Source: a virus
Lineage: Duplodnaviria; Caudoviricetes
Strand: one strand, 5' to 3'
Length of the DNA stretch: 40,660 bases
Virus record (IMG/VR): IMGVR_UViG_3300030376_004181
Coordinates: 1 to 40,660 of that record
The position numbers were made by a program, and so were the translations under genes. The notes under the pieces are model-generated. The model was not told where the DNA came from. It saw only the letters and a list, made by a program, of their open reading frames with translations, and made no database searches. Shown here piece after piece: positions 1-40,660 of this stretch. How positions within the stretch are numbered: position 1 is the stretch's first letter; each line of letters opens with the position of its first letter.

Positions 1-820
1 CCCGCCGTGGGAACCCCCCACAGTACAGCCATCGCCACCCCCAGTGCTAATTCTTCCATCACCAATTGGAGAAAACCTACAGATACCAGTGACAACAGAC
101 ATAGAGGGATTAGAAGAAGAGCCATTTGAAGATGATATCATGTGGGACTTCGACGATGTAGAATGGGAAGAGTTCGAGTTAGATGAGTTGCCAGAAATTG
201 AATTTATTGCAGAAGAATTTGAGGAAGAAGAGGAAGAAGAAACAACTTTCTTTGATGATGGAGAACAAGAACAGCCAGATGAAGTACAATCAGATGTGGA
301 ACTAGAGGAAGAGTTTGTTCTTGAAGAGTTTGAGGACATTGAAGAAGTAGACTTTGAGGAGTTAGACGCTGATGAGCTTGACGACGAAATTATTGCTGAG
401 ATACTACAGGATGAAGAGGCTGTTGAGATCTTTTTGGAAGAGGTCTTAGAAGATAATCCAGATTTTTTTGAAGAAGCTACCGGAGATCAAGTATCTGTAA
501 TCTTTGAGTCAGCACCAGAGATATTTAACGAAGCATCTGACGAAGTTAAAGAAGAACTCGAAGAAGAAATAAACGTGTTTGCTGGTGGCTTTGAAGAGTA
601 TGTGCCAGAGGATTCAAACATCAGCGTCGATGACAGACGTTCTATCATTGCTGTCACATCTGCGACTACAATAGTTGCTGGAGCTGCAATTGCAAGACCA
701 ACACCTCCACCAACACCAAGACCTACAACTCCAACCCCTCCAAGACCTAGCAGTCCACAATCTGCTTCTCCCAGTGGTCCCGAAACCCCAAGGAGAAAAA
801 CTAGAGATGATAAAGCGTAA
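1..820 (+). CDS. 5'-truncated acidic, Pro-rich membrane-anchored surface protein (allele of 37234..38760)
   Basis: Long runs nearly identical to the C-terminal half of the 508-aa protein ([33 protein letters not shown]); hydrophobic segment IIAVTSATTIVAGAAIA followed by a Pro/basic tail; runs off the window start. Confidence 0.85.
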   Translation, partial: PPWEPPTVQPSPPPVLILPSPIGENLQIPVTTDIEGLEEEPFEDDIMWDFDDVEWEEFELDELPEIEFIAEEFEEEEEEETTFFDDGEQEQPDEVQSDVELEEEFVLEEFEDIEEVDFEELDADELDDEIIAEILQDEEAVEIFLEEVLEDNPDFFEEATGDQVSVIFESAPEIFNEASDEVKEELEEEINVFAGGFEEYVPEDSNISVDDRRSIIAVTSATTIVAGAAIARPTPPPTPRPTTPTPPRPSSPQSASPSGPETPRRKTRDDKA

Positions 821-989
821 AGTTAAACGACTAACTCACGAAGTGTTTATCCTTAGCCTTACTGCTGGGTCAACCGGAATCGTGCTTATCACTTTATCGG
901 GTGAGACAAGAGAGTATGGTATTTGGATTACCGCAGCTAGCTTTGTGTGCCACATGGTAGGTGTATGGATAGATTGGAAAGAAGAGTGA
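807..989 (+). CDS. small two-TM membrane protein (holin-like or partner of the surface protein)
   Basis: ATG at 807 after AGGAG; basic N-terminus plus two hydrophobic helices; conserved in the copy at 38747..38929. Confidence 0.75.
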   Translation: MIKRKVKRLTHEVFILSLTAGSTGIVLITLSGETREYGIWITAASFVCHMVGVWIDWKEE

Positions 990-1171
990 CTCTCGAAGCA
1001 TTGTTCTTAGTTATTCTTACAGCTTGCCTTGTCCCTTGGATGGCTTGGATTTCTACCGTGTTAATTAAGATTGAGATACGTTTAGCTAAGGGTGATGAAG
1101 CGTTAGAAACTGCTGAGGAGCGTTTAGCAGACCATGAGCAAAGATTACGAGCGTTAGAACAACGCTGTTAG
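986..1171 (+). CDS. small protein with one TM helix and a coiled coil
   Basis: GTGA overlap with the upstream stop; hydrophobic N-terminus, then ERLADHEQRLRALE coiled coil; conserved at 38926..39111. Confidence 0.75.
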   Translation: MTLEALFLVILTACLVPWMAWISTVLIKIEIRLAKGDEALETAEERLADHEQRLRALEQRC

Positions 1172-1764
1172 CTACACACCCAGTGTTGCCAACCTCCGCC
1201 TGTAGCCCTGTAAATTAGCCAAGCGCTAACCCTGATATTAGCCTCACCTGAAAAAACGTCTGCTACATAACCTAAAGCAGTACGACTTCTAGCATCCCAA
1301 TACGTTGTCAAGTGTTGCATCAAGCCACTAGCTGTACTAACACTAGACCTCGCTGTAGGATCGCCACCAGATTCACAATCTATAATTTTCAAAAACCTAG
1401 CGGTATCGCTAGCAGGCCCACCGTTCGCTAGTATTGCGTCTTGCACAATTGGCCTCCACCGTTCGACCTCCGGCTTAAAGGTAGCGTTAGGAGAAACAGT
1501 TGAGTACAAACGCACCGAAATGTTCCGTTCCATAGCCCACTGACGATGATGCTTATGCGTATTTGTACCATAAATCCCATCCGTGTTCACGTTCATCCAG
1601 TACTGCAACAACCACACTCTCTCGCTGTCCTCTAACCAGTCATACTCAATAGATATAATGTGATTCTCTATTTTGTCCCAAGGTATGTAAGCTAGAGCTG
1701 TAGCTGACAGTGCGTTGATAGCGAACGTAAATAAAATCGTGCTATAAATAAAGGTCTTTTTCAT
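1168..1764 (-). CDS. exported lytic transglycosylase (SLT/lysozyme-like fold) with signal peptide
   Basis: Signal peptide MKKTFIYSTILFTFAINALSATALA; catalytic CESGG followed by ASGLMQ; DGIYG peptidoglycan-binding-like motif. Confidence 0.8.
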   Translation of the reverse strand: MKKTFIYSTILFTFAINALSATALAYIPWDKIENHIISIEYDWLEDSERVWLLQYWMNVNTDGIYGTNTHKHHRQWAMERNISVRLYSTVSPNATFKPEVERWRPIVQDAILANGGPASDTARFLKIIDCESGGDPTARSSVSTASGLMQHLTTYWDARSRTALGYVADVFSGEANIRVSAWLIYRATGGGWQHWVCS

Positions 1765-2107
1765 TATGGTGTCTCCAAATTGTTAACAGTTCCGCCGTAA
1801 ATTCCGCATCTAAAACAGCTACTTTACCAACTGTCTTTCCTATTTGCGACCTTCTGTCCCCGTGGATAGCAAAGATTACCCACTGATTATTGTGAGCAAC
1901 TTTCCGTATCCTGCTAATCCACGGGAACAGTGTCCAACGCTTGCGATATTTCACTTCAATAGGAATATCTAAGTCCCCCAACCAGATATCGTGAGACTCG
2001 CTACTAGCGCTGGTTCTGTGAGCATCGTTATGCCCCCATTCCATAAGTAAAGCCACTATTTCATTTTCACCCGCAGTTCCTTTTTGTTTTGCTTTAGACA
2101 AAATCAA
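1742..2107 (-). CDS. Holliday junction resolvase, Hjc-like PD-(D/E)xK
   Basis: SKAKQKGTAGENE...HDI...IEVK motif pattern. Confidence 0.75.
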   Translation of the reverse strand: MILSKAKQKGTAGENEIVALLMEWGHNDAHRTSASSESHDIWLGDLDIPIEVKYRKRWTLFPWISRIRKVAHNNQWVIFAIHGDRRSQIGKTVGKVAVLDAEFTAELLTIWRHHNEKDLYL

Positions 2108-2642
2108 ACACTCCTTGTATTTCTGCCCGTTTTTTTTCGACGGTTACGATTGTATCGTTCCTAACTCCTCCATGGGGTACTAAAAGAATTTCTAACATAT
2201 CAAAACCTAAAGTCTTGCCTATGCCCATGGAGTTCCAACCACAACGCACTACGATGGCGTTAGGTTTGCATATCCTTGCGATTTGTTTTTTGATCTCTGA
2301 CCACGGGTTTTGTGTGTCTTCTTGAGTGACTACACGCCCTATCCCGTCGTAGCATTCTTTGATCTGTCTAGAGCTGTACGGTGGGTCAAATAGAACTCCG
2401 TCAACTGACTCATCTTCAAGCAATGAAAGAAAATGCTTAGAGTCGTGATGAAAGTCTGCTTCAAACTCTGGGTTGATGTCGTTTGTGAACTTCATTAAAT
2501 GCTTAAAACAACTGTTACGGACATAAGGATCAACCCAAACTCCCTTGGTCATCACCCTGCGAAGGAGGGAGTTAATGGGTTGAATCCTAAATGTTTCAGA
2601 GTTAGGCATAGCCCATTCTCTATGAAACTGTATTTCTGTCAC
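2094..2642 (-). CDS. putative adenine-specific DNA methyltransferase
   Basis: Catalytic DPPY motif (VLFDPPYS); degenerate SAM-binding VDPY; phage-type AMPNSETF start. Confidence 0.75.
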   Translation of the reverse strand: MTEIQFHREWAMPNSETFRIQPINSLLRRVMTKGVWVDPYVRNSCFKHLMKFTNDINPEFEADFHHDSKHFLSLLEDESVDGVLFDPPYSSRQIKECYDGIGRVVTQEDTQNPWSEIKKQIARICKPNAIVVRCGWNSMGIGKTLGFDMLEILLVPHGGVRNDTIVTVEKKRAEIQGVFDFV

Positions 2643-2830
2643 AAAAGTTCTTTAATGTCTTCTGCAATCGGCCCGTAATGCTGTTCTGCGTAAGCGTCTA
2701 AAGCATCCCGTATCATACCTGATCTAGTTTGACCGTTATGTATCGCTAACTGGTCTACCTTAACTAACAAAGAGTGAGGTATCCGCATAGCAATTAACTG
2801 GTCGTTTTTGTCTTTAAGTGGTGTTTCCAT
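2639..2830 (-). CDS. ribbon-helix-helix (CopG/Arc-like) DNA-binding protein
   Basis: LIAMRIPHSLLVKVDQLA...TRSGMIRDAL pattern; ATG at 2830 has an AGGAG RBS. Confidence 0.75.
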   Translation of the reverse strand: METPLKDKNDQLIAMRIPHSLLVKVDQLAIHNGQTRSGMIRDALDAYAEQHYGPIAEDIKELL

Positions 2831-2832
2831 CG

Positions 2833-2985
2833 TTATTTCTCCTGATGTTTTTGCCCGCATGTAGGGCATTTGTTATTATTATTTTCTATTACTTTTGAGC
2901 CTATGACCCAACCGCAACTACAGCTTATGTAGTACGGTGATTTGGTTCTGAGTTTAGATTTCTTCTGACCGAAATCATCCCACAC
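2833..2985 (-). CDS. 50-aa zinc-ribbon protein (not in the ORF track)
   Basis: Hand translation MWDDFGQKKSKLRTKSPYYISCSCGWVIGSKVIENNNNKCPTCGQKHQEK; TAGTG coupling to ssb; fills the intergenic gap exactly. Confidence 0.7.
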   Translation of the reverse strand: MWDDFGQKKSKLRTKSPYYISCSCGWVIGSKVIENNNNKCPTCGQKHQEK

Positions 2986-3389
2986 TAAAACCAGTCCTCA
3001 TCTTTATCTATTGGCTTACCATCAACTATTGCAGTTTTGCCTTGCCAATCATCTTGCTTAGGCGCTCTAACAATCTGAAATAAATCCCAAACGTTACAGT
3101 CCCAACCAGTTACAGTTTGTCCGTCTTTGTTTTTGTATTGACGGCTGGTAAATTTGCCTCTAACAGCTATCCTGCTACCTTTATCTGTGGCTTTAGCTAT
3201 AGCTTCTGCTAGCGCTGTTGACTCATCTCTGGAGTCTTCCCAAACGCTTAACGTTACCCATGTAGTTTCTTCTGGGCCTGTCTTTACGGCTAACGCATTC
3301 TCATAAACTGCTTTGCCTGTGCCAGTGACCTTGGGTAGCCACTCTCTGCCTAGGTTTCCCATTTGGAAACCGATTCCCTCATTCAACAT
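2985..3389 (-). CDS. ssb: single-stranded DNA-binding protein
   Basis: GNLG, TTWV..SVW, KGSRIAVRGKFTSRQYKNKDGQ motifs; acidic-aromatic C-terminal tail DEDWF. Confidence 0.85.
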   Translation of the reverse strand: MLNEGIGFQMGNLGREWLPKVTGTGKAVYENALAVKTGPEETTWVTLSVWEDSRDESTALAEAIAKATDKGSRIAVRGKFTSRQYKNKDGQTVTGWDCNVWDLFQIVRAPKQDDWQGKTAIVDGKPIDKDEDWF

Positions 3390-3795
3390 TATTGTTCTCC
3401 TTTTTAATTAATTGTTGATGTAATACATAATACTCATCTGATGTCCAAAGTGACAACCCAAGACTTAAGCGCATCCCAATCCGTTTTATACCATCGCTGA
3501 CACTGGCTTTACTGTTCTGACCTGAGTGCTTACTAGGTCTTTCCACCTCGCCAATCTCTTGAATGGTGACTTGTTTGCCATCTATGGTAAAAGTGCATTC
3601 AAGAATGCAACCCTCAACAATGCCCTCTGGACTTCTGATAAGTTCTACTATTCGCATGTCAAACGGACCTAAATGTAACAACAAAAATTGCGTTATATCT
3701 CCGTGGCTGACATACCTGTCACCCCTACCTGTCGGCTTTACTTTAACGAAAGTTTCCGGTATTGGTTTTGATAATTTGATTAATTGTTCAGGCAT
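3379..3795 (-). CDS. Rad52/Sak-like single-strand annealing protein
   Basis: YVSHGDIT...KASVSDGIKR..MRLSLGLSLW matches the Rad52/22 family pattern; adjacent to ssb and an exonuclease. Confidence 0.7.
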   Translation of the reverse strand: MPEQLIKLSKPIPETFVKVKPTGRGDRYVSHGDITQFLLLHLGPFDMRIVELIRSPEGIVEGCILECTFTIDGKQVTIQEIGEVERPSKHSGQNSKASVSDGIKRIGMRLSLGLSLWTSDEYYVLHQQLIKKENNNVE

Positions 3796-4048
3796 CTATT
3801 TTCTCCCAATTCGGATATTTTTCTTCTAACTCTTTCATACGTCTCTGTGAAGAGACCCAACTTTCCCAACAATACATTGTCCAATCTTCTAAATCATTTA
3901 ACAATTTTTTATTAGGTTCTGTTTCTTCTTCTTCTAATCTCTCCGCTAGAGATAAAAAGTTTTCCATGCCTTGCATCATTTTGACATCGTGTGCAAGCCA
4001 CTTGTATGTTTGCCTATCAAGTGTTTCTTGATCAGGTTCTTTCATCAT
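3788..4048 (-). CDS. hypothetical protein
   Basis: Overlapping coupling with both neighbours; near-identical partial copy at 40410..40660. Confidence 0.75.
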   Translation of the reverse strand: MMKEPDQETLDRQTYKWLAHDVKMMQGMENFLSLAERLEEEETEPNKKLLNDLEDWTMYCWESWVSSQRRMKELEEKYPNWEKIDA

Positions 4049-5794: not shown

Positions 5795-5922
5795 TACTCT
5801 AATCCTTCCTTATAGTAAAGCTCTTCCTCACGTTGAGCGTGAAGAGCATTTGTTTCTCTTTCTAAAGCCTCATCAAAGGCTTCTTCTTGTTCGGGTGTAA
5901 ACCCCAACAGTTTTATTTTCAT
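5794..5922 (-). CDS. 42-aa acidic hypothetical protein
   Basis: Hand translation MKIKLLGFTPEQEEAFDEALERETNALHAQREEELYYKEGLE; strong AGAAAGGAAAG RBS. Confidence 0.65.
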   Translation of the reverse strand: MKIKLLGFTPEQEEAFDEALERETNALHAQREEELYYKEGLE

Positions 5923-5948
5923 AGCTTTCCTTTCTTTTGTTATATTCA

Positions 5949-5976
5949 ATTATACACGACCTGCAACAGATCTCAA
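5949..5976 (-). promoter_or_regulatory. sigma70/SigA-type promoter for the recombination operon
   Basis: Minus strand TTGAGA-N16-TATAAT upstream of the RBS of 5794..5922. Confidence 0.6.
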
Positions 5977-5982
5977 ATCATG

Positions 5983-6150
5983 TTACACATCGTTTGACCA
6001 GTTCGCTCCATTACAGAACGGACAAGTCGGATACCTGTCAGAGATTGCATCACCAATAAAAGCTCTGCAATCAAGACACTTCACGAAGAACTTGCTTAAG
6101 CCTTTAGACTTACGCTTCTTCGTTTTCTCTTGTGAGAAATCAAAGTCCAT
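5983..6150 (-). CDS. small zinc-ribbon protein
   Basis: Start MDFDF at 6150 after AGAAAGAAGGAAAC; CLDC...CPFC. Confidence 0.7.
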   Translation of the reverse strand: MDFDFSQEKTKKRKSKGLSKFFVKCLDCRAFIGDAISDRYPTCPFCNGANWSNDV

Positions 6151-6202
6151 GTTTCCTTCTTTCTTTATTACCTTCTTGGTGTATAACCTTGTGTACAGGG
6201 TA

Positions 6203-6436
6203 TCACACGCTGTCAAGTCGGGTCTTCATCATCCTCCATCTGTAACGCTCAGATGCAGTCATTCCATGTCTGAAACCCCAGAGTTGGAAAGGGTCTGGCT
6301 CATCTTCAGCAGACGTAGCAATACACTGTTCAATAACAGGGCATCCATCACAAACAGACCTGCACTTACGATGCTGGTCCGAATAGAATACCGTAGTCAT
6401 GCCACGACAGCCAGCTCTCTCTCTCCAATTATCCAT
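6203..6436 (-). CDS. whiB: WhiB-family Fe-S transcription factor
   Basis: WRERAGC...VF...VCDGCPVIEQC...LWGFRHGMTASER: four-Cys WhiB spacing with a variant G(V/I)WGG turn. Confidence 0.8.
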   Translation of the reverse strand: MDNWRERAGCRGMTTVFYSDQHRKCRSVCDGCPVIEQCIATSAEDEPDPFQLWGFRHGMTASERYRWRMMKTRLDSV

Positions 6437-6451
6437 TCTTTTACTATACAC

Positions 6452-6501
6452 CAAAGAACCCCCTGCGTAGGAAAAGAAGGAAGGAAACCTACGCAAGGGG
6501 T
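6452..6501 (-). terminator. intrinsic-terminator-like hairpin ending the early operon
   Basis: 14-bp stem ACCCCUUGCGUAGG/CCUACGCAGGGGGU (G-U pair works only on the minus strand), followed by UCUUU. Confidence 0.6.
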
Positions 6502-6510
6502 CTAATGATT

Positions 6511-6597
6511 CTAGCCGTAAACTAGCTCACCAAACAACCCGTACTGAACAATAATGTTAGCCCAGTCTGCACCTTGTTCTTGTATTTCTTCTTTCAT
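6511..6597 (-). CDS. 28-aa peptide
   Basis: MKEEIQEQGADWANIIVQYGLFGELVYG with a strong AGAAAGGAAAG RBS. Confidence 0.55.
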   Translation of the reverse strand: MKEEIQEQGADWANIIVQYGLFGELVYG

Positions 6598-6619
6598 ATT
6601 CTTTCCTTTCTTTGTTAAT

Positions 6620-6808
6620 CTAAGCGATTAAATTATCAGGGTCAAAGGCTAGGTCATACACAAAGGTTTGTGCTTGTGACCATGCCGACTCACCATTAAA
6701 ACGTTTGACGACCTTGTTAGTAGAGATTTTGCGAACAACTGCTACGAGGTTCACATCATCTACTTCTGAAACATAATCGCCTTCTTGATAATCAATTACT
6801 AAACTCAT
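6620..6808 (-). CDS. hypothetical early protein
   Basis: Strong AGAAAGGAAAG RBS; tandem array. Confidence 0.75.
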   Translation of the reverse strand: MSLVIDYQEGDYVSEVDDVNLVAVVRKISTNKVVKRFNGESAWSQAQTFVYDLAFDPDNLIA

Positions 6809-6839
6809 ATTTCTTTCCTTTCTTTATTGTTATTAATTA

Positions 6840-7103
6840 TTAAAATGGTTCAGCATCAAACTCATGGAGCACATCTTCGTAAGCTTGAATAACAAGAGTG
6901 TCATTATCTACGACAGTTGTGCGAACCTTAAGACCACGTGCTTTTCCAGCTTGCTTCGCACCATTACGCATGGTGTTTACATTGCTTTGGAAATCATCAG
7001 GTCGTGTAAGTTTCCAGATGTTACCATCTAGCCACAAATTCCATTCATACTTTCCCTTGCGACCAGCGCTAGCGAAAGCAAATCTTTCTAATTGTGTTGC
7101 CAT
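6840..7103 (-). CDS. hypothetical early protein
   Basis: RBS AGAAAGGAAAG; GRKGKYEWNLWLDGNIWKL motif. Confidence 0.8.
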   Translation of the reverse strand: MATQLERFAFASAGRKGKYEWNLWLDGNIWKLTRPDDFQSNVNTMRNGAKQAGKARGLKVRTTVVDNDTLVIQAYEDVLHEFDAEPF

Positions 7104-7241
7104 AATTTATCTTTCCTTTCTGAAACAAACACTTGGAGTGTTTCCCACTGTCCACCATCTAAGGGAGGTAAGTATGGTGGACAGGGAGCTACACTCTTCA
7201 GCTCTGGGAGATTCCCTGAATCGTCAGAGGTTGCTAGTTCT

Positions 7242-7418
7242 TTAGCATTCTTGTACGTCAAGAACCATAGTTGATGTGTGCATAGCATGATCGTAAGCAT
7301 CATTAATAGTTGCTTCGCTCTCAGCCATGTCACGTGCATCGTAATCATTATTTGCCTCAACTTCTACCCACTCGTCATCCTCGTAGATGTGGTTGAGATG
7401 TACTTTGTACGTTGCCAT
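7242..7418 (-). CDS. 58-aa acidic early protein (not in the ORF track)
   Basis: Hand translation MATYKVHLNHIYEDDEWVEVEANNDYDARDMAESEATINDAYDHAMHTSTMVLDVQEC; AAAGAAGGAAAAG RBS. Confidence 0.75.
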   Translation of the reverse strand: MATYKVHLNHIYEDDEWVEVEANNDYDARDMAESEATINDAYDHAMHTSTMVLDVQEC

Positions 7419-7436
7419 TATCTTTTCCTTCTTTCC

Positions 7437-7487
7437 GTGCCTTATCTAAGCACTGAGAAAGACACCTTACGATGTCCAACCCACAAC
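7437..7487 (-). ncRNA. intergenic structured motif, family B copy 1
   Basis: GUUG UGGG UU GGACAUC GUAA GGUGUCU UU CUCA GUGC..GCAC, then SD; covaries with 9618..9669. Confidence 0.7.
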
Positions 7488-7766
7488 TTAGAACGATGAG
7501 TTATCAAATAAGTATTCTTCAGTTTGAAAACCATTCGCCATGACAAATTCTTTTATCTCTGACTTCAAATAAATGTTGCTTTTATTTTTTTCAATTACCG
7601 GAGTAGGAAATCCACGACCATCATATCGTCGCCTCCAATTATTAACTCTTTGGTCAGTAGTTGTATAATAATCAGCGACATCACGCAAATTCCATAACTC
7701 ATCCTTACATTGTTCTAAGAATCTGCGTATGTCGTTGTCATCGCTTGGTGTGTAGTATTTAACCAT
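7488..7766 (-). CDS. AlpA/Xis/MerR-like helix-turn-helix protein
   Basis: LWNLRDVADYY...VNNWRRR..GFPTPV...IYLKSEIKEF pattern. Confidence 0.65.
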   Translation of the reverse strand: MVKYYTPSDDNDIRRFLEQCKDELWNLRDVADYYTTTDQRVNNWRRRYDGRGFPTPVIEKNKSNIYLKSEIKEFVMANGFQTEEYLFDNSSF

Positions 7767-7782
7767 ATCTTCCTTCTTTCTT

Positions 7783-7830
7783 TCTGATGCTTACTTAACA
7801 TCCTAGAGCACACCCTGCGATGTGCTCCGA
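7783..7830 (-). ncRNA. intergenic structured motif, family A copy 1
   Basis: UCGGAGCACA-loop-UGUGCUCU AG GAUG..CAUC AGA immediately before the SD. Confidence 0.75.
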
Positions 7831-7834
7831 GTTA

Positions 7835-8374
7835 TTAACTAGCTAACTCTGCTCTTTTCTTTTCCATCAAAGCATTAAACTCACGCTTATTATACGAAGT
7901 TGCATTAGTTGATAGACCAATACGACGCTCCAAATCTTCACGGGTAACTTCCCGATGAATTTGTTTTTCAAACTTGAGTTCATCCTCATTGAATTGCAAG
8001 TAATAGAACTTAACATACCCGCCATACCCAGAATCTATAAACATTTCAATTCTGCGCATCCATTCGTTAATGTTGCTCTCTTTGATAACGTTAAGCCCGA
8101 CTGTCATCGTCATCCATACAATACTTTGAGTGACGTTGTGCTCTATCCACGTATTAATACGGGACAGGAACAGCCCTAGCTCTTGCTCGTTGTCTTTGTC
8201 TGGAAGTGGACCCCATTGTGCATCACCTAGTGATGACAGTTGGACCTCTTCAATAACAAAGCCAGACGAATCTTTAACTTTGAATACCGGATATTCTGTG
8301 TCGCCTATGTAGGCTGTTGCACAGGATATTTCCGAGTAGTCAGAGACATTCGCTACTGACCAATTAAATGGCAT
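7835..8374 (-). CDS. hypothetical early protein
   Basis: 179-aa ORF with AGAAAGAAGGAAAAG RBS, bounded by family A motifs. Confidence 0.85.
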   Translation of the reverse strand: MPFNWSVANVSDYSEISCATAYIGDTEYPVFKVKDSSGFVIEEVQLSSLGDAQWGPLPDKDNEQELGLFLSRINTWIEHNVTQSIVWMTMTVGLNVIKESNINEWMRRIEMFIDSGYGGYVKFYYLQFNEDELKFEKQIHREVTREDLERRIGLSTNATSYNKREFNALMEKKRAELAS

Positions 8375-8388
8375 ATCTTTTCCTTCTT

Positions 8389-8439
8389 TCTGATGTTCCT
8401 AGCGAACATCCTAGAACGCACCCTTACGATGCGCTCCGA
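8389..8439 (-). ncRNA. intergenic structured motif, family A copy 2
   Basis: Compensatory change GCGCA/UGCGU in stem 1; stem 2 GAUGUUC/GAACAUC. Confidence 0.75.
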
Positions 8440-8447
8440 GCTATTAG

Positions 8448-8744
8448 CTAGTCCCATAACGTTGCTCCGCACGCTTCGCATGCGTAGTCATCGTCATCGT
8501 ATGGAGGATGGTCACAATCCGTATCAAAATCAGTGGAATAGCATAGAAATTTATTGTTATCTTTAGGGTTAGGATGCAACCATCCGTTACCGTTATTGAT
8601 AGTTAAATATTTTTCAATAGTTTTTATGCTATGACTTCTACAGACATCAATAGTTTGTGACCCCACATGTGCGACTTCTTCATCACAAGTCCATAGGGAA
8701 CCCATCAACGTTGTATACGTTTCTATTCGTCTACCTTTAGCCAT
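8448..8744 (-). CDS. hypothetical Cys-containing early protein
   Basis: Start MAKGRR at 8744 after SD; CDHPPYDDDDYACEACGATL C-terminus. Confidence 0.8.
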   Translation of the reverse strand: MAKGRRIETYTTLMGSLWTCDEEVAHVGSQTIDVCRSHSIKTIEKYLTINNGNGWLHPNPKDNNKFLCYSTDFDTDCDHPPYDDDDYACEACGATLWD

Positions 8745-8757
8745 TATCTTCCTTCTT

Positions 8758-8812
8758 TCTGACACCACCTAGTTAGTTGGCATCCTAGAACACACCCTGC
8801 GATGTGCTCCGA
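8758..8812 (-). ncRNA. intergenic structured motif, family A copy 3
   Basis: Stem 2 GAUGCCA/UGGUGUC is maintained by G-U pairs on the minus strand. Confidence 0.75.
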
Positions 8813-8820
8813 CATAACAA

Positions 8821-9138
8821 CTAAACGTTATATATTTCTTCTATGAAATCTTTGAAATTATTAGTCACATTCTTATTGACTTCAATAGTTTCCTTACGAT
8901 TACCGCTATGATCTACGCCCCAACTATGGAACAATTCTGCCATAGGATACCGGCTATCTACAGTAAATCTAACTGTAGGTCCACCATACGTAATAAGAAA
9001 CTCACAAATATAATCTTGATTACATGCCTCATTCGTTATGCTCCGCTCGGTAAATAGCCGAACTTCTAAGCAATCAAATTCGCTTAAATCTTGGTGTTCA
9101 CTTTCAAAGTGATCCCGATATTCAAATATGTTTTCCAT
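8821..9138 (-). CDS. hypothetical early protein
   Basis: Start MENIF at 9138 after SD; LITYGGPTVRF...SWG motif. Confidence 0.8.
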   Translation of the reverse strand: MENIFEYRDHFESEHQDLSEFDCLEVRLFTERSITNEACNQDYICEFLITYGGPTVRFTVDSRYPMAELFHSWGVDHSGNRKETIEVNKNVTNNFKDFIEEIYNV

Positions 9139-9153
9139 TATCTTTCCCTTCTT

Positions 9154-9199
9154 TCTGATGCTTAGCATCCTAGAACACACACTGTCGCATGTGCTCCGA
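9154..9199 (-). ncRNA. intergenic structured motif, family A copy 4
   Basis: UCGGAGCACAUGC GACA GUGUGUGUUCU AG GAUGC UAA GCAUC AGA. Confidence 0.75.
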
Positions 9200-9208
9200 G
9201 CTGTTAAG

Positions 9209-9364
9209 CTACTTAACTTTCTTAAGTATCTCCGCTAACTTGTCTAATGTTTCTTTGTCCATATTATTAACGGCATCAAGGTTAATCGTCTGGTTCCATT
9301 GTTTACGGAACTCATCACCTGATTCATCGGGATTACTAATTCCCATAATTTCTATACTTGGCAT
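9209..9364 (-). CDS. 51-aa early protein
   Basis: Start MPSIE at 9364 after SD. Confidence 0.7.
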   Translation of the reverse strand: MPSIEIMGISNPDESGDEFRKQWNQTINLDAVNNMDKETLDKLAEILKKVK

Positions 9365-9381
9365 TATCTTCCTTCTTTCTT

Positions 9382-9431
9382 TTTGATGTTTACTTAACAT
9401 CCTAGAACACATGCTTGCACATGTGCTCCGA
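9382..9431 (-). ncRNA. intergenic structured motif, family A copy 5
   Basis: GGAGCACAUG..GCAA..CAUGUGUUCU AG GAUGUU..AACAUC. Confidence 0.75.
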
Positions 9432-9435
9432 GATA

Positions 9436-9603
9436 TCAACTATCTACAGTTACCCGAATAGTTTTATTGAAGGGAATCCAACCTTCACGCCTAGCCTTAT
9501 TCATATAGTAAATTTCAGTAAGCATAAACAATCCGTAGCCTTTTGTTTTCTCTTCAAGTTGTTCCCACCATTCAATAGTTTTACCTTCAAACATAGGTCC
9601 CAT
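9436..9603 (-). CDS. small early protein
   Basis: Start MGPMF after SD AGAAAGAAGGAAG. Confidence 0.7.
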   Translation of the reverse strand: MGPMFEGKTIEWWEQLEEKTKGYGLFMLTEIYYMNKARREGWIPFNKTIRVTVDS

Positions 9604-9617
9604 CATCTTCCTTCTTT

Positions 9618-9669
9618 CTAGTGCACTAGGCACTAGGAAAGGCACTATTTCTAATGCCCAACCTACAAC
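9618..9669 (-). ncRNA. intergenic structured motif, family B copy 2
   Basis: GUUG UAGG UU GGGCAUUA GAAA UAGUGCCU UU CCUA GUGC..GCAC; GNRA loop. Confidence 0.7.
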
Positions 9670-9882
9670 CTAGACAATTATGCAACCCGTCTGTCCGCAT
9701 CCTAGTTGCTCAAATGTTTCCGATTGGAAATATTCAACAACATCTTTACGCACAAGTTGGTATAGCGGTAAATCAATTGGCGCTTCTATGTCATAATTAT
9801 CTGCCCATTCTTTAACCTTTACGGTTACCGTGATGGGAATAAGGATTGTCATAGTGCCATCCTTAATGTTTAAATCGCTCAT
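9670..9882 (-). CDS. hypothetical early protein
   Basis: SD AGAAAGAAGGAAG; cassette arrangement. Confidence 0.75.
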   Translation of the reverse strand: MSDLNIKDGTMTILIPITVTVKVKEWADNYDIEAPIDLPLYQLVRKDVVEYFQSETFEQLGCGQTGCIIV

Positions 9883-9896
9883 TATTCTTCCTTCTT

Positions 9897-9942
9897 TCTG
9901 ATGCAGTTAGCATCTTAGAGCACACCTCACGATGTGCTCCGA
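9897..9942 (-). ncRNA. intergenic structured motif, family A copy 6
   Basis: UCGGAGCACAUC GUGA GGUGUGCUCU AA GAUGC..GCAUC AGA. Confidence 0.75.
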
Positions 9943-9954
9943 GATAATAACTAT

Positions 9955-10158
9955 CTATCCCCCGTATGGTCCTGCCCAATTTGGACCAGTCATATTTTTA
10001 AATTCGCCGGTGCCTAATTGGGTTACACCGTTAAACCTTCGGTCACGCTCCCACCGTAGCGCTTTATGCGCTTGACGATTACGGAGACGCTCTAATCGTA
10101 ACTGATTAAGTTCACGGTCACGGCGTGCTTTACGTAACTTACGTTTGTACTCTTCCAT
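9955..10158 (-). CDS. Arg-rich first early protein
   Basis: Start MEEYKRK at 10158; its SD lies inside hammerhead stem III. Confidence 0.7.
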   Translation of the reverse strand: MEEYKRKLRKARRDRELNQLRLERLRNRQAHKALRWERDRRFNGVTQLGTGEFKNMTGPNWAGPYGG

Positions 10159-10162
10159 GTTG

Positions 10163-10219
10163 CCTTCTTTCTGCATCCCTTACGGGTGCTCATCAGTGTG
10201 GTCAATTCCACAGAGAAGG
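10163..10219 (-). ncRNA. type III hammerhead-like ribozyme (variant core)
   Basis: CCUUC-UC/UGUGG-AAUUGA-CCACA-CUGAUGA-GCACCC-GUAA-GGGAUGC-A-GAAA-GAAGG: stems I-III and core present; one extra A before GAAA. Confidence 0.7.
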
Positions 10220-10229
10220 AAAGAAAGAT

Positions 10230-10500
10230 TCTTATTTATCCTTAGGTCCATACGGACTCCATCGGTGGTATACCGGCAGGTACCGGCTAAGCGATTATAC
10301 TAGGGCTTTCTATCCATCATCACGGTGGAACCTTCCCTTTAATATCCCTTTTTCTCATCAGGATAAAAGACTCGCATATTTTGGGGACTTTCAACCCTAT
10401 GGAAGATTTCTTTTACTAGCCGGATGTCTCCGCTTTACCTTCCTTTTCCTGACCCCTACCTCAGGGCTTGAGTTGATCCGGTTTCTGTTTCAACTTCAGT
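10230..10500 (-). ncRNA. long structured leader/ncRNA upstream of the hammerhead
   Basis: No credible ORF; four long-range 7-8 bp helices with minus-strand G-U pairs, plus local hairpins. Confidence 0.55.
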
Positions 10501-10641
10501 AATAGTAACGATAGCGCTATATGGGTCATAAATGGTGTCACATACCATGATTTAAACAGATACCGCTATCTAAAAAACAGATGGTTAACCGGACCGATTC
10601 ACCTAGCATAGATTTAAAAATGATGCAAATCAGGCTAAAAG

Positions 10642-10678
10642 CGAACATACGTTCGTAAAAAAAGCGAACATACGTTCG
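10642..10678. promoter_or_regulatory. tandem LexA (SOS) boxes, Gram-positive type
   Basis: CGAACATACGTTCG at 10642-10655 and 10665-10678; matches CGAAC-N4-GTTCG. Confidence 0.7.
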
Positions 10679-10880: not shown

Positions 10881-10913
10881 TATAAAGTCTAACCCTCTAC
10901 CTTAGGTTTAGGG

Positions 10914-10942
10914 CGAACGTACGTTCGGCGAACATATGTTCG
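10914..10942. promoter_or_regulatory. second pair of LexA (SOS) boxes
   Basis: CGAACGTACGTTCG at 10914-10927 and CGAACATATGTTCG at 10929-10942. Confidence 0.7.
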
Positions 10943-11000: not shown

Positions 11001-11104
11001 GGTGTTTTGGGGGTTTTGGTTTAGTGGTTTGTGTGTTGTGGGGGTGTTTTTTTGTGTGTGTTTGGGTGTTTTGTTTGTTGGTGTTTGGTTGATTTGTTTT
11101 GGGG
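11001..11104 (+). other. G/T-only low-complexity tract, candidate genome terminus/packaging region
   Basis: About 100 nt almost free of A and C, after a C-run and just upstream of the terminase operon. Confidence 0.45.
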
Positions 11105-11378
11105 CGTAGTTTCCCTTGGGAACCTCCCAAGCATTGGGGTTGCTTTGACCTTGTAATCGCTTTGTCCTGTGCGTTACGCCCCTGTGCGCTCATTTCCTTT
11201 TTGCGTTGTCACAGGGGACCGTTACCCTTCTGACGGGTGACTCACCGAGGGTTAGTCGGGCGCTGCTTACAGGCGGTGTTGTGGTTGGTCAAGGGTCCAC
11301 AATCCCCTTTTTGTTTTTAGGTATGGGTTAGGATACCCTTTCGGGTATTTAGTTACAACATGGTGTTGGGAGTTTTTT

Positions 11379-37233: not shown

Positions 37234-38760
37234 ATGGCTCGTTTTTTCTTTGCCCTGTCACGCATATTGTTAGCTTCCATGTTTGTTATGGCGATAATTA
37301 GTCCTGTGTCAGCACAAGAGAGCGAGCCTGAGACAACGTGTGCAGATCAAGAAGATGTTACTTCGTGTACTGTGCATGTGGATGATTATGATGCTCCGCC
37401 TGTGGTGTATATGACAGTCGCTGAAGATCAGACTGCTGTTGAAATCATTACCTATACGTCATTGACATGCGATAATCATGGCTTAGAAAGCATTTATGCT
37501 GACCCTTACCTTATATTATATGACAGTGGTGGGACAATTATTGGTGAAGATGATGATTCAGCGAGCCACAATGACGGTTCTAACATGTGTTGGGACAGTT
37601 ATTTGAACCTTACGTTGGATGCAGGGGACTATGAATTGTCAGCTACTGCATACGATGGGGAAACTATAGGAACGTATACGTTAGAGTTTTCTGGTGTGAG
37701 CTGGTCGTTGTCTAATGACTCTGAGCCTGCGCCTGATCCTGAACCTACTCCAGAACCAGAACCTACGCCCGAACCAACTCCTGAGCCTACGCCTGAACCT
37801 GTAGAGCCTACGCCTGAGCCAGACCCTGAACCGGAACCAACGCCTACGCCTGAAGAGGAAGTTGAACCTCCCGTAGATGAGCCTATTCAAAGTCCCACTC
37901 CTCTCCCAGAAGAACCAGAAGAAGAGCCAGAACCAGACCCAGTGTGGGAACCCCCCATAGAAGATACATTGCCAGACCCAGAGCCAATTCTTCCATCACC
38001 ATTTGAAGAAAATCCGTTGCCACCAGTGACAATAGACATAGAGGAATTAGAAGATGATTCATTTAATGATGATATCATTTGGGACTTAGAAGATGTAGAA
38101 TGGGATGACTTTGAGTGGGATGAGTTACCTGAGATAGAGGAATTAGATGAACTATTACCAGAAGAAGATGAGGCAGAGGCGGAAGAAGAGGCAACTTTTG
38201 TTGATGAAGCAGAACAAGAACAGCCAGATCAAGTACAATCAGATGTGGAACTAGAGGAAGAATTTGTTCTTGAAGAGTACGAAGACATTGAAGAGATAGA
38301 CTTTGAGGAGTTAGACGTTGATGAGCTTGACGACGAAATTATTGCTGAGATATTACAAGATGAAGAGGCTGTTGAGGTCTTTCTTGAAGAGGTCTTAGAA
38401 GACAACCCTGATTTCTTTGAGGAAGCTACCGAAGATCAAGTGTCTGTAATTTTTGAGTCAGCACCGGAGCTGTTTAATGAGGCTTCTGATGAGGTTAAGG
38501 ATGAACTTGAGGCTGAGATTAATGTGTATGCTGGTGGTTTTGGTGAGTATGTGCCAGAGGATTCAACAATATCTGTTGATGAAAGGCGGAGTATTATTGC
38601 GGTGGCTACAGCGACTGCTACAATAGCTACAGTAGCGGTTGCTAGACCTACACCGCCACCTACACCAAGACCTACAACTCCAACCCCTCCAAGACCTAGC
38701 AGTCCATCGGCTGTTTCTCCCAGTGGTCCAACGATCAGGAGAAACAATGATAAAACGTAA
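37234..38760 (+). CDS. secreted, membrane-anchored acidic surface protein with PPC-like domain and (PE/PT)n stalk
   Basis: Signal peptide ending VSA-Q; DPYLILYD...IGEDDDS...[11 protein letters not shown]-like motif; Pro-Glu-Thr repeats; Asp/Glu-rich domain; C-terminal hydrophobic segment. Confidence 0.75.
37723..37853 (+). repeat. coding tandem repeats encoding PEPTPE
   Basis: Degenerate CCTGAACCTACT/GAGCCTACGCCT units. Confidence 0.8.
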
Positions 38761-38929
38761 ACTTAAACGGTTAACACGTGAAGTATTTATTCTTAGTTTA
38801 ACTGCTGGCTCTACGGGTATTGTGCTGATTACGTTGTCAGGGGAGACAAGAGAGTACGGTATTTGGATTACCGTAGCTAGCTTTGTGTGTCACATGGTAG
38901 GTGTATGGATTGATTGGAAAGAAGAGTGA
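38747..38929 (+). CDS. small two-TM membrane protein (allele of 807..989)
   Basis: Near-identical protein with many synonymous changes. Confidence 0.8.
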
Positions 38930-39111
38930 CTCTTGAAGCACTGTTCTTAGTTATTCTTACAGCTTGTCTTGTGCCTTGGATGGCTTGGATTTCTACCGTG
39001 TTAATTAAGATTGAGATACGTTTAGCTAAGGGTGACGAAGCTTTAGAGACTGCTGAAGAACGGTTAGCTGACCATGAGCAACGCATCAGGGCGTTAGAGT
39101 CTGTCCGTTAG
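38926..39111 (+). CDS. TM plus coiled-coil protein (allele of 986..1171)
   Basis: Near-identical protein. Confidence 0.8.
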   Translation: MTLEALFLVILTACLVPWMAWISTVLIKIEIRLAKGDEALETAEERLADHEQRIRALESVR

Positions 39112-39457
39112 CCTTGTCTAGTTGATGTCGCCAGATCATTAATAGTTCTGACGCAAAGTCAGCATCCATAACAGCTACAGTGCCTACTTGCTTGCCTACT
39201 GTGGACCTTCTGTCCCCGTGTATGGCAAAGATAACCCACTTGTTGTCGTCTGATACGTTACGTATGCGAGCTATCCACTTGAACAAAGACCATGCTTTAC
39301 GGTACTTGACTTCCACTGTCACGCCTGTGTCCCCCAACCAGATATCATGCGATTCAGTGGAAGCCGAAGTCCTTTTCACATCTTTGTGTCCCCACTGTAT
39401 CAAGAGATCACGGATGATGTTCTCCCCTACAGTGCCTTTCTGTCGTGCTTTACTCAC
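39086..39457 (-). CDS. Holliday junction resolvase (allele of 1742..2107)
   Basis: SKARQKG..GE...HDIWLG...VEVK. Confidence 0.75.
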   Translation of the reverse strand: MSKARQKGTVGENIIRDLLIQWGHKDVKRTSASTESHDIWLGDTGVTVEVKYRKAWSLFKWIARIRNVSDDNKWVIFAIHGDRRSTVGKQVGTVAVMDADFASELLMIWRHQLDKANGQTLTP

Positions 39458-39606
39458 TGTTTGACGTAAGGCACGTTGTCTATGTAGATGTTTATTATTC
39501 TACGTAGCATACCTGAACGTGACCTGCCTTCCTCAAGGGCTAGCAAATCTACTTGGTCAAGTAATTCTTTGGGCATTCGTAAGGCTACGAGTTGATCGTT
39601 ACTCAT
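39454..39606 (-). CDS. ribbon-helix-helix protein (allele of 2639..2830; not in the ORF track)
   Basis: Hand translation MSNDQLVALRMPKELLDQVDLLALEEGRSRSGMLRRIINIYIDNVPYVKQ; coupled on both sides. Confidence 0.75.
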   Translation of the reverse strand: MSNDQLVALRMPKELLDQVDLLALEEGRSRSGMLRRIINIYIDNVPYVKQ

Positions 39607-40037
39607 TAGAATGGCATCTCCTTAGCTTCTTGGCGTGCATCTCCCCAGTGTTCAGAGTCTGAGTCTACGATGGCTGTTCGCCCTGCCCAGTCGTCTTGCT
39701 TGGGTTTGATTACGTTGGCTACATCCCACACGTTACAGTTCCAAGAGGTTTTCATTTCGCCTTCCTTGTTCTTGTAACTGCTTTGTGAGAACTTACCTCG
39801 TATCATTACACGTGAACCTTTGCCTGTTTTATCTGCAATGGTTTCTGCTAATGCTGTTGACCCGTCTCTACTGTCCTCCCATATCGTGAGGTTAACCCAG
39901 ATAGTAGGGTCGTCTTTCTTTACTTGGTAGGCTAATGCGTTTTCGTATACGACTTTGCCTACTGAGTCTATTACTTTCATTTGCCATTCTCTTCCGAGAT
40001 TGCCGTGAAGGTAGTGTGTGTGTTCGTTTATACTCAT
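39606..40037 (-). CDS. ssb: single-stranded DNA-binding protein (diverged allele)
   Basis: GNLGREW, WVNLTIW, KGSRVMIRGKF, C-terminal MPF. Confidence 0.85.
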   Translation of the reverse strand: MSINEHTHYLHGNLGREWQMKVIDSVGKVVYENALAYQVKKDDPTIWVNLTIWEDSRDGSTALAETIADKTGKGSRVMIRGKFSQSSYKNKEGEMKTSWNCNVWDVANVIKPKQDDWAGRTAIVDSDSEHWGDARQEAKEMPF

Positions 40038-40441
40038 TCTTCTCCTTTACTGAGTTCTTTGTGTAGTCGGTAGCTTTCGTCACCTGTCCACATGCTTAAT
40101 CCGAGAGAACACCGCATCGCAATACGTTTTATGCCGTCGCTGACTGAACTCTTGGCGTTCTGACCTGAGTGCTTACTAGGTCTTTCTACCTCTCCTATCT
40201 CTTGGATAGTCGTAACCCTGCCGTCTATGGTGAAGGTGCATTCAAGGATGCAACCCTCAACGATACCTTCAGGGCTACGTATCAGCTCTACTATTCGCAT
40301 GTCAAACGGTCCGAGATGAGCGAGCAGGAATTGTGTTATGTCTCCGTGACTAACGTACCTGTCTCCTCTTCCTGTTGGTTTAACTTTTACATACGCTTCT
40401 GGTATGGGTTTAGCTAACTTGGCTAGCTGGGATGTCATCAT
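40034..40441 (-). CDS. Rad52/Sak-like annealing protein (allele of 3379..3795)
   Basis: Core nearly identical in amino acids to the left copy. Confidence 0.7.
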   Translation of the reverse strand: MMTSQLAKLAKPIPEAYVKVKPTGRGDRYVSHGDITQFLLAHLGPFDMRIVELIRSPEGIVEGCILECTFTIDGRVTTIQEIGEVERPSKHSGQNAKSSVSDGIKRIAMRCSLGLSMWTGDESYRLHKELSKGEE

Positions 40442-40660
40442 TCTCTCTTTCTATTGTTTTAAATTGTGGATACTCTTCTTCTAACTCTTTCATACGTCTC
40501 TGTGAAGAGACCCAACTTCCCCAACAATACATTGTCCAATCTTCTAAATCATTTAACAATTCTTTATTAGGTTCTGTTTCTTCTTCTTCTAATCTCTCCG
40601 CTAGAGATAAAAAGTTTTCCATGCCTTGCATCATTTTGACATCGTGTGCAAGCCACTTGT
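40410..40660 (-). CDS. hypothetical protein, 5'-truncated (allele of 3788..4048)
   Basis: Near-identical DNA; runs off the window end. Confidence 0.75.
   Translation of the reverse strand, partial: KWLAHDVKMMQGMENFLSLAERLEEEETEPNKELLNDLEDWTMYCWGSWVSSQRRMKELEEEYPQFKTIERENDDIPASQVS

Follow-up and report, generated by a model that had tools for sequence, protein, structure and literature searches.

The question raised by this locus is whether the RNA immediately ahead of the first early gene of a virus cuts itself, and whether such a cut would set free the ribosome-binding site of that gene. The window, by which is meant the whole stretch of DNA analysed, is a virus record of 40,660 nt with a GC content of 41%, and its genes include those for a terminase, a capsid protein, WhiB and SSB. 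The WhiB gene points to an actinobacterial host. No GenBank phage matched the window at the DNA level, and the terminase relatives among GenBank phages all had less than 60% identity. Tara contig names are attached to several close relatives, and relatives also turned up in RNA runs, which are marine. No tRNA or tmRNA was found. A hammerhead motif sits at the head of a cluster of small minus-strand genes, which is taken as early on the basis of its position and gene content.

The early genes and their start regions

9955..10158, minus strand: first early gene (gene 1), 67 aa, Arg/Lys-rich, no family match
5921..9950, minus strand: downstream early genes, with start regions that carry GAAAGAAGG or GAAAGGAAAG

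Gene 1 had no match in Pfam, PHROG or the atlas, and its homologues are limited to seven close ones. An in-frame ATG upstream, at 10176, falls within stem II of the hammerhead and is missing from copies with other stem II types, so the ATG at 10158 is the likely start of gene 1. Genes 2-9 are also preceded by structured cassettes, which are of two types, lack the CUGANGA core and are laid out as hairpin-hairpin-AGAAAGAAGG. Both types (window positions 7419-9950, minus strand) covary, are common to relatives and begin at the upstream stop codon; one of these cassettes gave a weak match to osmY (E 0.016 in L327). Across 52 type-1 cassettes the long hairpin was not consistently paired in a fixed register, and an RNase III reading of the cassettes is therefore one of analogy only.

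Several further features lie around the early cluster and at the ends of the window. A long imperfect hairpin ahead of gene 10 (7136-7196, minus strand) is conserved in L121 and L136, and a near-consensus sigma-70-type promoter (11/12) within the early cluster (5949-5976, minus strand) is similar in the same two relatives. Upstream of the early promoter, a near-palindromic 15-mer occurs in four copies (10641-10678 and 10913-10942), possibly operator or origin sites, in a region that holds strand-biased low-complexity tracts (11001-11094). An apparently non-coding block at 11120-11330 shares 79-98% identity with 15 of 79 terminase loci, including relatives that lack the hammerhead; its hairpin arms appear to change in compensation, contigs from RNA libraries lie on it, and it may be a structured RNA that precedes the late operon. 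The right end (37944-40660) is a diverged repeat of the left end (7-4005; blocks of 83%, 82% and 71%) that carries second SSB and annealing-protein genes; the duplication may be genuine, or two strains may have been joined into a chimera during assembly.

A type III hammerhead core with one extra nucleotide

The element ahead of gene 1 is made up of the following parts:

10213..10229, minus strand: pyrimidine tail AUCUUUCUUUCCUUCUC, comprising a 10-nt extension together with the 5' strand of stem III and the CUC cleavage triplet
10197..10212, minus strand: stem I (5 bp), UGUGG (10212-10208) with CCACA (10201-10197), and loop AAUUGA
10190..10196, minus strand: core C3-A9, CUGAUGA, invariant in 25 of 25 copies apart from N7
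10173..10189, minus strand: stem II, GCACCC (10189-10184) with GGGAUGC (10179-10173), one bulged A, and a GUAA loop
10172, minus strand: extra A between position 11.1 and G12, present in 25 of 25 copies
10163..10172, minus strand: ribosome-binding block AGAAAGAAGG of gene 1, made of the extra A, G12-A15.1 and the stem III 3' strand

The catalytic GAAA lies at 10171-10168 of the minus strand, stem III is formed by AGAAGG (10168-10163, the 3' strand) and CCUUCU (10219-10214), and the predicted cut falls between C17, at 10213, and 10212. The stems, core, loops and GAAA had been placed at these positions in an initial sequence-only reading of the DNA, and every one of them is there on the minus strand. 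A relaxed type III descriptor that allowed 0-2 inserted nucleotides matched a single site in the window and had no match in 500 dinucleotide shuffles. The fold taken by itself is modest, with a z-score of -2.0 and 6 of 200 shuffles folding equally well.

Several properties place the element with the type III hammerheads. It forms a three-way junction in which stems I and II are closed and the ends lie in stem III, the A15.1-U16.1 pair is present in 25 of 25 copies, and position 17, an H in the hammerhead definition, is C in all 25. Two properties depart from that type: GAAA does not directly follow position 11.1, being preceded by the extra A in every copy, and the score stays below the Rfam gathering cut-off of 48.5 bits. 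The element is therefore filed as a core variant; it is a type III hammerhead variant, of that lineage, for which cleavage is predicted. A scan with Hammerhead_3 had been proposed as a check. An Rfam cmscan of the window returned no hammerhead match at E<=5; RF00008 (Hammerhead_3) aligned with 13.5-14 bits to the corresponding site of three relatives out of five. No match at the gathering score was obtained in nine relatives without the element.

Homologues and covariation

Homologues were gathered in several ways. A terminase search yielded 79 loci, 34 of them with 2.1 kb or more of DNA upstream, and the element was present in the five loci with at least 90% terminase identity and in none of the other 29. 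A metagenome pattern scan, in which CCUUCUC, the core and the extra A were fixed, gave 52 matches, of which 23 fold, and a viral scan contributed four accepted matches out of five. Deduplication left 25 distinct sequences: the window, 5 terminase-linked copies, 18 from metagenomes and 1 further viral copy. The invariance of the stem III 5' strand, core and extra A in the 18 metagenome copies is by construction of the pattern. The five terminase-linked copies and a relative from RNA libraries were not selected for core or extra A, yet they agree. The absence of the core from homologues had been named as an outcome that would speak against a ribozyme; CUGANGA and GAAA were found in all five element-bearing, terminase-linked relatives.

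The extra A was missing from none of the copies found: a control pattern lacking it gave 25 matches, none of which folds, and a tail-anchored scan that left the extra A unspecified gave 6 family matches among 40, every one with the extra A. Broad pattern scans added no further copy under the descriptor filters. Pattern matches L337, L345 and L371 have no stem I and read as coding sequence (best covariance-model E 0.52), and were dropped, as were L450 and L476, which do not fold. Ribozyme and leader models run on 151 genomes of the class of G001 returned nothing convincing, and a match with E 0.03 among them looks like coding DNA.

The core CUGANGA is present in 25 of 25 copies, with variation at N7 alone (U in 15, C in 10), and in all five of the pattern-free copies. 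In the arms of stems I and II, by comparison, 33 of 43 columns vary. Across the 25 copies, 98.9% of the cells in these two stems pair, 36 of them with changes on both sides, as against at most 54% and two cells in slid controls. Both-side changes occur at two pairs of stem I, in 11 and 14 of the 25 sequences, and at one pair of stem II, which has several sequence types, in 11 of 25. The pair that closes stem II, G10.1-C11.1, keeps to the hammerhead rule, being G-C in 15 copies and G-U in 9; the remaining copy, L160, has a further inserted C. In that copy (L160:6313-6391, minus strand) the C lies between A9 and G10.1 and stem I is shifted, which is either a real variant or a sequencing error. 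The RNA-library relative, represented by two contigs, has two compensatory pair changes in stem I and carries the extra A. Stem III is nearly invariant, and covariation therefore cannot support it. Loop I begins and ends with A in all copies while loop II varies freely, and the usual loop I-loop II contact is doubtful because loop II is not conserved.

All copies belong to one clade. Within it the ribozyme module has been kept while its surroundings were swapped: the leaders fall into two classes that are almost without similarity, and the first genes are of at least four unrelated kinds. Such persistence would be expected if a hammerhead were selected for catalysis. A chance likeness, to which the modest fold z-score and the lack of an Rfam match in the window might point, can be dismissed as wildly improbable given the empty set of 500 shuffles and the covariation in 25 copies, and is refuted by the homologues.

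The extra A and the ribosome-binding block

The position of the extra A bears on both catalysis and translation. PMC11300833 describes G12 as the general base, in a sheared pair with A9 that adjoins G10.1-C11.1, so the extra A would have to be looped out before a normal core could arise. Natural insertions are described elsewhere in the hammerhead core (2a/2b, A6a and U13a), some of which slow cleavage (PMC3088659). An insertion between 11.1 and 12 does not appear in the consulted text of that paper, and three motifs of the present family were absent from 11 of its supplement files, in which gapped alignments could hide them. Searches of open-licence text returned no description of this insertion or family.

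The extra A also completes AGAAAGAAGG, so that the ribosome-binding block runs from the extra A through the catalytic GAAA into stem III. The sequence-only reading had equated the Shine-Dalgarno with the 3' strand of stem III. The spacing bears this out, four nucleotides separating that strand from the ATG at 10158, but the block is the whole of AGAAAGAAGG and not the stem III strand alone. Nine of the ten positions of AGAAAGAAGG pair with a 16S 3' end from Acidimicrobiia genomes (-9.4 kcal/mol); of 30 loci taken from the class to which an Acidimicrobiaceae genome belongs, which may not be that of the host, 10 have this 3' end. The window has eight exact copies of AGAAAGAAGG, each on the minus strand and ahead of an early gene, in keeping with the earlier proposal that the extra A creates a block common to the other cassettes.

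The upstream leader

Upstream of the predicted cut lies a structured RNA, with the following features:

10508..10513, minus strand: putative -10 hexamer TAnnnT of an early promoter, placed by eye
10213..10501, minus strand: conserved structured leader RNA of class A, 289 nt, the predicted 5' cleavage product (17-leader alignment)
10438..10449, minus strand: purine block X, GGAAAAGGAAGG, predicted partner of the tail in competition with stem III
10384..10397, minus strand: conserved hairpin whose GARA tetraloop has a U-G or U-A closing pair
10287..10375, minus strand: two-hairpin domain closed by a long-range helix, GCGA (10375-10372) with UCGC (10294-10291), in 17 of 17 class A leaders
10240..10269, minus strand: covarying hairpin with an internal loop (class A alignment)

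By eye, TAnnnT ends 5-8 nt ahead of the start of conservation in 16 of the 19 leaders in which that start is defined; a consensus promoter scan did not pick the hexamer. The class A leaders (n=17) show changes on both sides at 10 of 30 consensus pairs, and the long-range helix, paired in all 17, takes several sequence forms. The internal loop of the hairpin at 10240..10269 presumably resembles a GNRA-tetraloop receptor. In RNAalifold the helix between block X and the tail has 11 pairs, with 185 of 187 cells paired and one-side A/G changes only; GAAGG of block X is invariant in 17 of 17 leaders, and a local pyrimidine block is an alternative partner for X. The leaders of class B (L336, L362, L366, L375 and L137) can hardly be aligned to class A, being reached by the class A model only at E 0.014, and end in the same tail and ribozyme; a conserved purine block in them could pair with the tail as X does. 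Viral contigs were scanned for the leader tied to the tail, a search that could miss leaders with a different tail.

The leader had no Rfam match in the window, including none to an aptamer. Two known folds were considered and rejected. Twister type P3 (RF03154) reached 21.6-29.2 bits in three leaders against a cut-off of 39.9, with no match in the window, and the strand aligned as P2 has another partner in 17 of 17 leaders. For group II intron domain I, RF01998 matched in none of five and the sole RF02001 match had E 3.1; the leader model reached a best E of 0.063 on 20 intron loci, and a domain I profile scored above all shuffles in 1 of 23 leaders, with pairwise z at most 2.4.

Predicted competing pairings of the pyrimidine tail

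The tail exceeds what stem III requires, and its last 15 nt are invariant in 25 of 25 copies. Each of the 23 folding metagenome matches (of 52) has CUUUCUUU ahead of CCUUCUC, though CUUUCUUU was not part of the pattern. Folding models give the tail three partners in cis: stem III, a slipped pairing and leader block X. The slipped pairing, which the sequence-only reading had overlooked together with the complementarity of the tail to other early start regions, is displaced by four bases, joins GAAAGAAGG with CUUUCUUUC and uses up the catalytic GAAA (ViennaRNA). With the ribozyme alone, the slip is favoured over stem III at 15 C in 17 of 22 copies, and at 37 C in 10 of 22; for this genome the respective probabilities of stem III and slip are 0.16 and 0.81 at 15 C, and 0.60 and 0.24 at 37 C. 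These are models of secondary structure, which ignore tertiary contacts and co-transcriptional folding. Because they also place the tail in two inactive pairings, cleavage is probably slow or gated.

The cost of opening the ribosome-binding block was computed before and after the predicted cut. Over 21 copies the median was 6.6 kcal/mol in the local precursor, 4.4 kcal/mol in the full precursor and 1.0 kcal/mol in the 3' product, and the gain in access upon cleavage exceeded 2 kcal/mol in 16 of the 21. It had been proposed earlier that cleavage frees the ribosome-binding site, and for this genome the models sustain that proposal in part: the local construct falls from 5.9 to 0.8 kcal/mol, but with the full leader the cost is already 1.2 against 0.8 kcal/mol, a predicted gain of 0.4. 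The gain in the full precursor is small because a segment of the leader can take up the masking tail.

A model for cleavage, and its rivals

On balance these observations favour the reading in which a type III hammerhead with an extra A cuts itself, probably slowly, between 10213 and 10212, thereby freeing the ribosome-binding site of gene 1 and releasing a leader of 289 nt. The host polymerase would start near 10501. With the tail on block X, the ribozyme would be off and the ribosome site open; with the tail slipped by four bases on GAAAGAAGG, the ribozyme would be off and the site shut; and with the tail in stem III, the ribozyme would be on and the site shut. Cutting would be confined to molecules that adopt the stem III register and loop out the extra A, and processing would thus be partial or delayed. 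After the cut the tail would refold onto X and so leave the mRNA, which would then begin with two hairpins (stems I and II) and continue with AGAAAGAAGG, the layout of the non-ribozyme cassettes of genes 2-9.

Four RNA runs from one study contain relatives in the form of contigs only, without strand, level or end information, and these contigs cover the leader and the terminase, portal and capsid regions. Two contigs of one relative span the cut site, which fits either uncut RNA or DNA carry-over, so that cleavage is neither shown nor excluded by these runs.

A first, unlikely rival is that the cut serves mainly to mature a trans-acting RNA, the tail of the leader pairing with early ribosome-binding sites and probably shutting translation, with the release of gene 1 secondary. 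The tail forms duplexes of -11.9 kcal/mol or stronger with 13 of the 15 first minus-strand gene starts, none of 8 middle ones and none of 17 late plus-strand ones, while about 1% of genome windows reach -12 in tail pairing. Among 360 permutations of the ten 5' bases of the tail, the actual sequence takes rank 25 against 130 other early starts and rank 358 against late ones; however, those 130 regions were chosen by a motif complementary to the tail, and the tail ranks as well for its own site (11/360) and block X (34/360), so the cis partners can explain it. Stem III, moreover, already requires an anti-Shine-Dalgarno tail. The early motif occurs 8-17 times in each of five relatives with the element and in none of 20 lacking it (at least 5 kb of flank), but this co-occurrence lies within one clade and hence amounts to one event. 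The tail of the 5' product is also predicted to be largely paired inside the leader (0.39-0.87), and the contig-only RNA runs hold no evidence of leader accumulation. A timer made of RNA only, in which a slow hammerhead would both switch on gene 1 and mature the 3' guide of a structured 289-nt RNA, which would pair with the common ribosome-binding sites of about a dozen early genes and so control them in trans, is given the same low credence as this rival.

Somewhat more doubtful is the idea that the element is hammerhead-derived and effectively dead, gene 1 being controlled without cleavage by a switch between tail-on-X and tail-on-ribosome-block. It would account for the extra A adjoining G12, for the slipped register being favoured in many copies, for an RF00008 score of about 14 bits and for the contigs that bridge the cut site, and the extra A might be kept merely for its longer pairing to the 16S end. 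Such a switch gives no reason, however, for the keeping of CUGAYGA and C17, with variation at N7 only, across swapped leaders and genes.

Slightly less credible again is a leader that senses a ligand or a protein, possibly the basic product of gene 1, and gates cleavage through block X, which would make the whole a natural allosteric ribozyme. The leader is multi-domain and covarying, with a tetraloop and a receptor-like loop, X can choose between the tail and the local pyrimidine block, and most first genes encode Arg-rich products. Against a sensor stand the feeding of the same ribozyme by two unlike leader classes, the absence of an Rfam aptamer match, and a gene 1 that has neither family nor look-alike.

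Comparison with known systems

The preferred reading, a slow self-cut that frees the gene 1 site, yields a concrete test from sequence alone: the catalytic strand doubles as a ribosome-binding site, and a role is predicted for each product. What most self-cleaving RNAs of bacteria and phages do biologically is still undefined (PMC6765202 and PMC10085705). If the element cleaves, an insertion beside the general base is tolerated, a whole subfamily has been missed by current descriptors, and engineered switches that mask a ribosome-binding site have a natural counterpart.

The element resembles type III hammerheads of RF00008 in strand order, the three stems, CUGANGA, GAAA, the A15.1-U16.1 pair, C17 and the closing of stem II by G10.1. 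It differs from them in the fixed extra A between 11.1 and G12, in a 5-bp stem I, a 6-bp stem II and an unconserved loop II, and in a stem III that is open and built of the ribosome-binding site. Hammerheads of Penelope elements and viroids carry an extra nucleotide between A9 and G10.1 (PMC4209133); there a single inserted base at the foot of stem II is tolerated, and the present element likewise has one, on the opposite strand of that stem.

In early phage RNAs the comparable task falls to RNase III, which in T7, lambda cIII and the N leader cuts leaders so that a ribosome site is exposed and early cistrons are separated (PMC5371410); the agent there is a protein nuclease, whereas here it would be a self-cleaving RNA. 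The nearest natural context is HHphage of haloviruses HF1/HF2, a core-insertion variant 13 nt ahead of the first early gene, for which a transcript end maps near the cut site (PMC3088659). HHphage shares with the present element the insertion in the core and the place just ahead of the first gene of a polycistronic early transcript; pairing with the ribosome-binding site, predicted here, is not mentioned for it in the main text of that paper. The nearest design is that of engineered E. coli switches, in which the Shine-Dalgarno is paired in a hammerhead stem and freed by cleavage (PMC7445771). Those switches are synthetic, of type I, and hold the site in an extended stem I, whereas the element ahead of gene 1 is natural, of type III, and has the site laid over GAAA and stem III.
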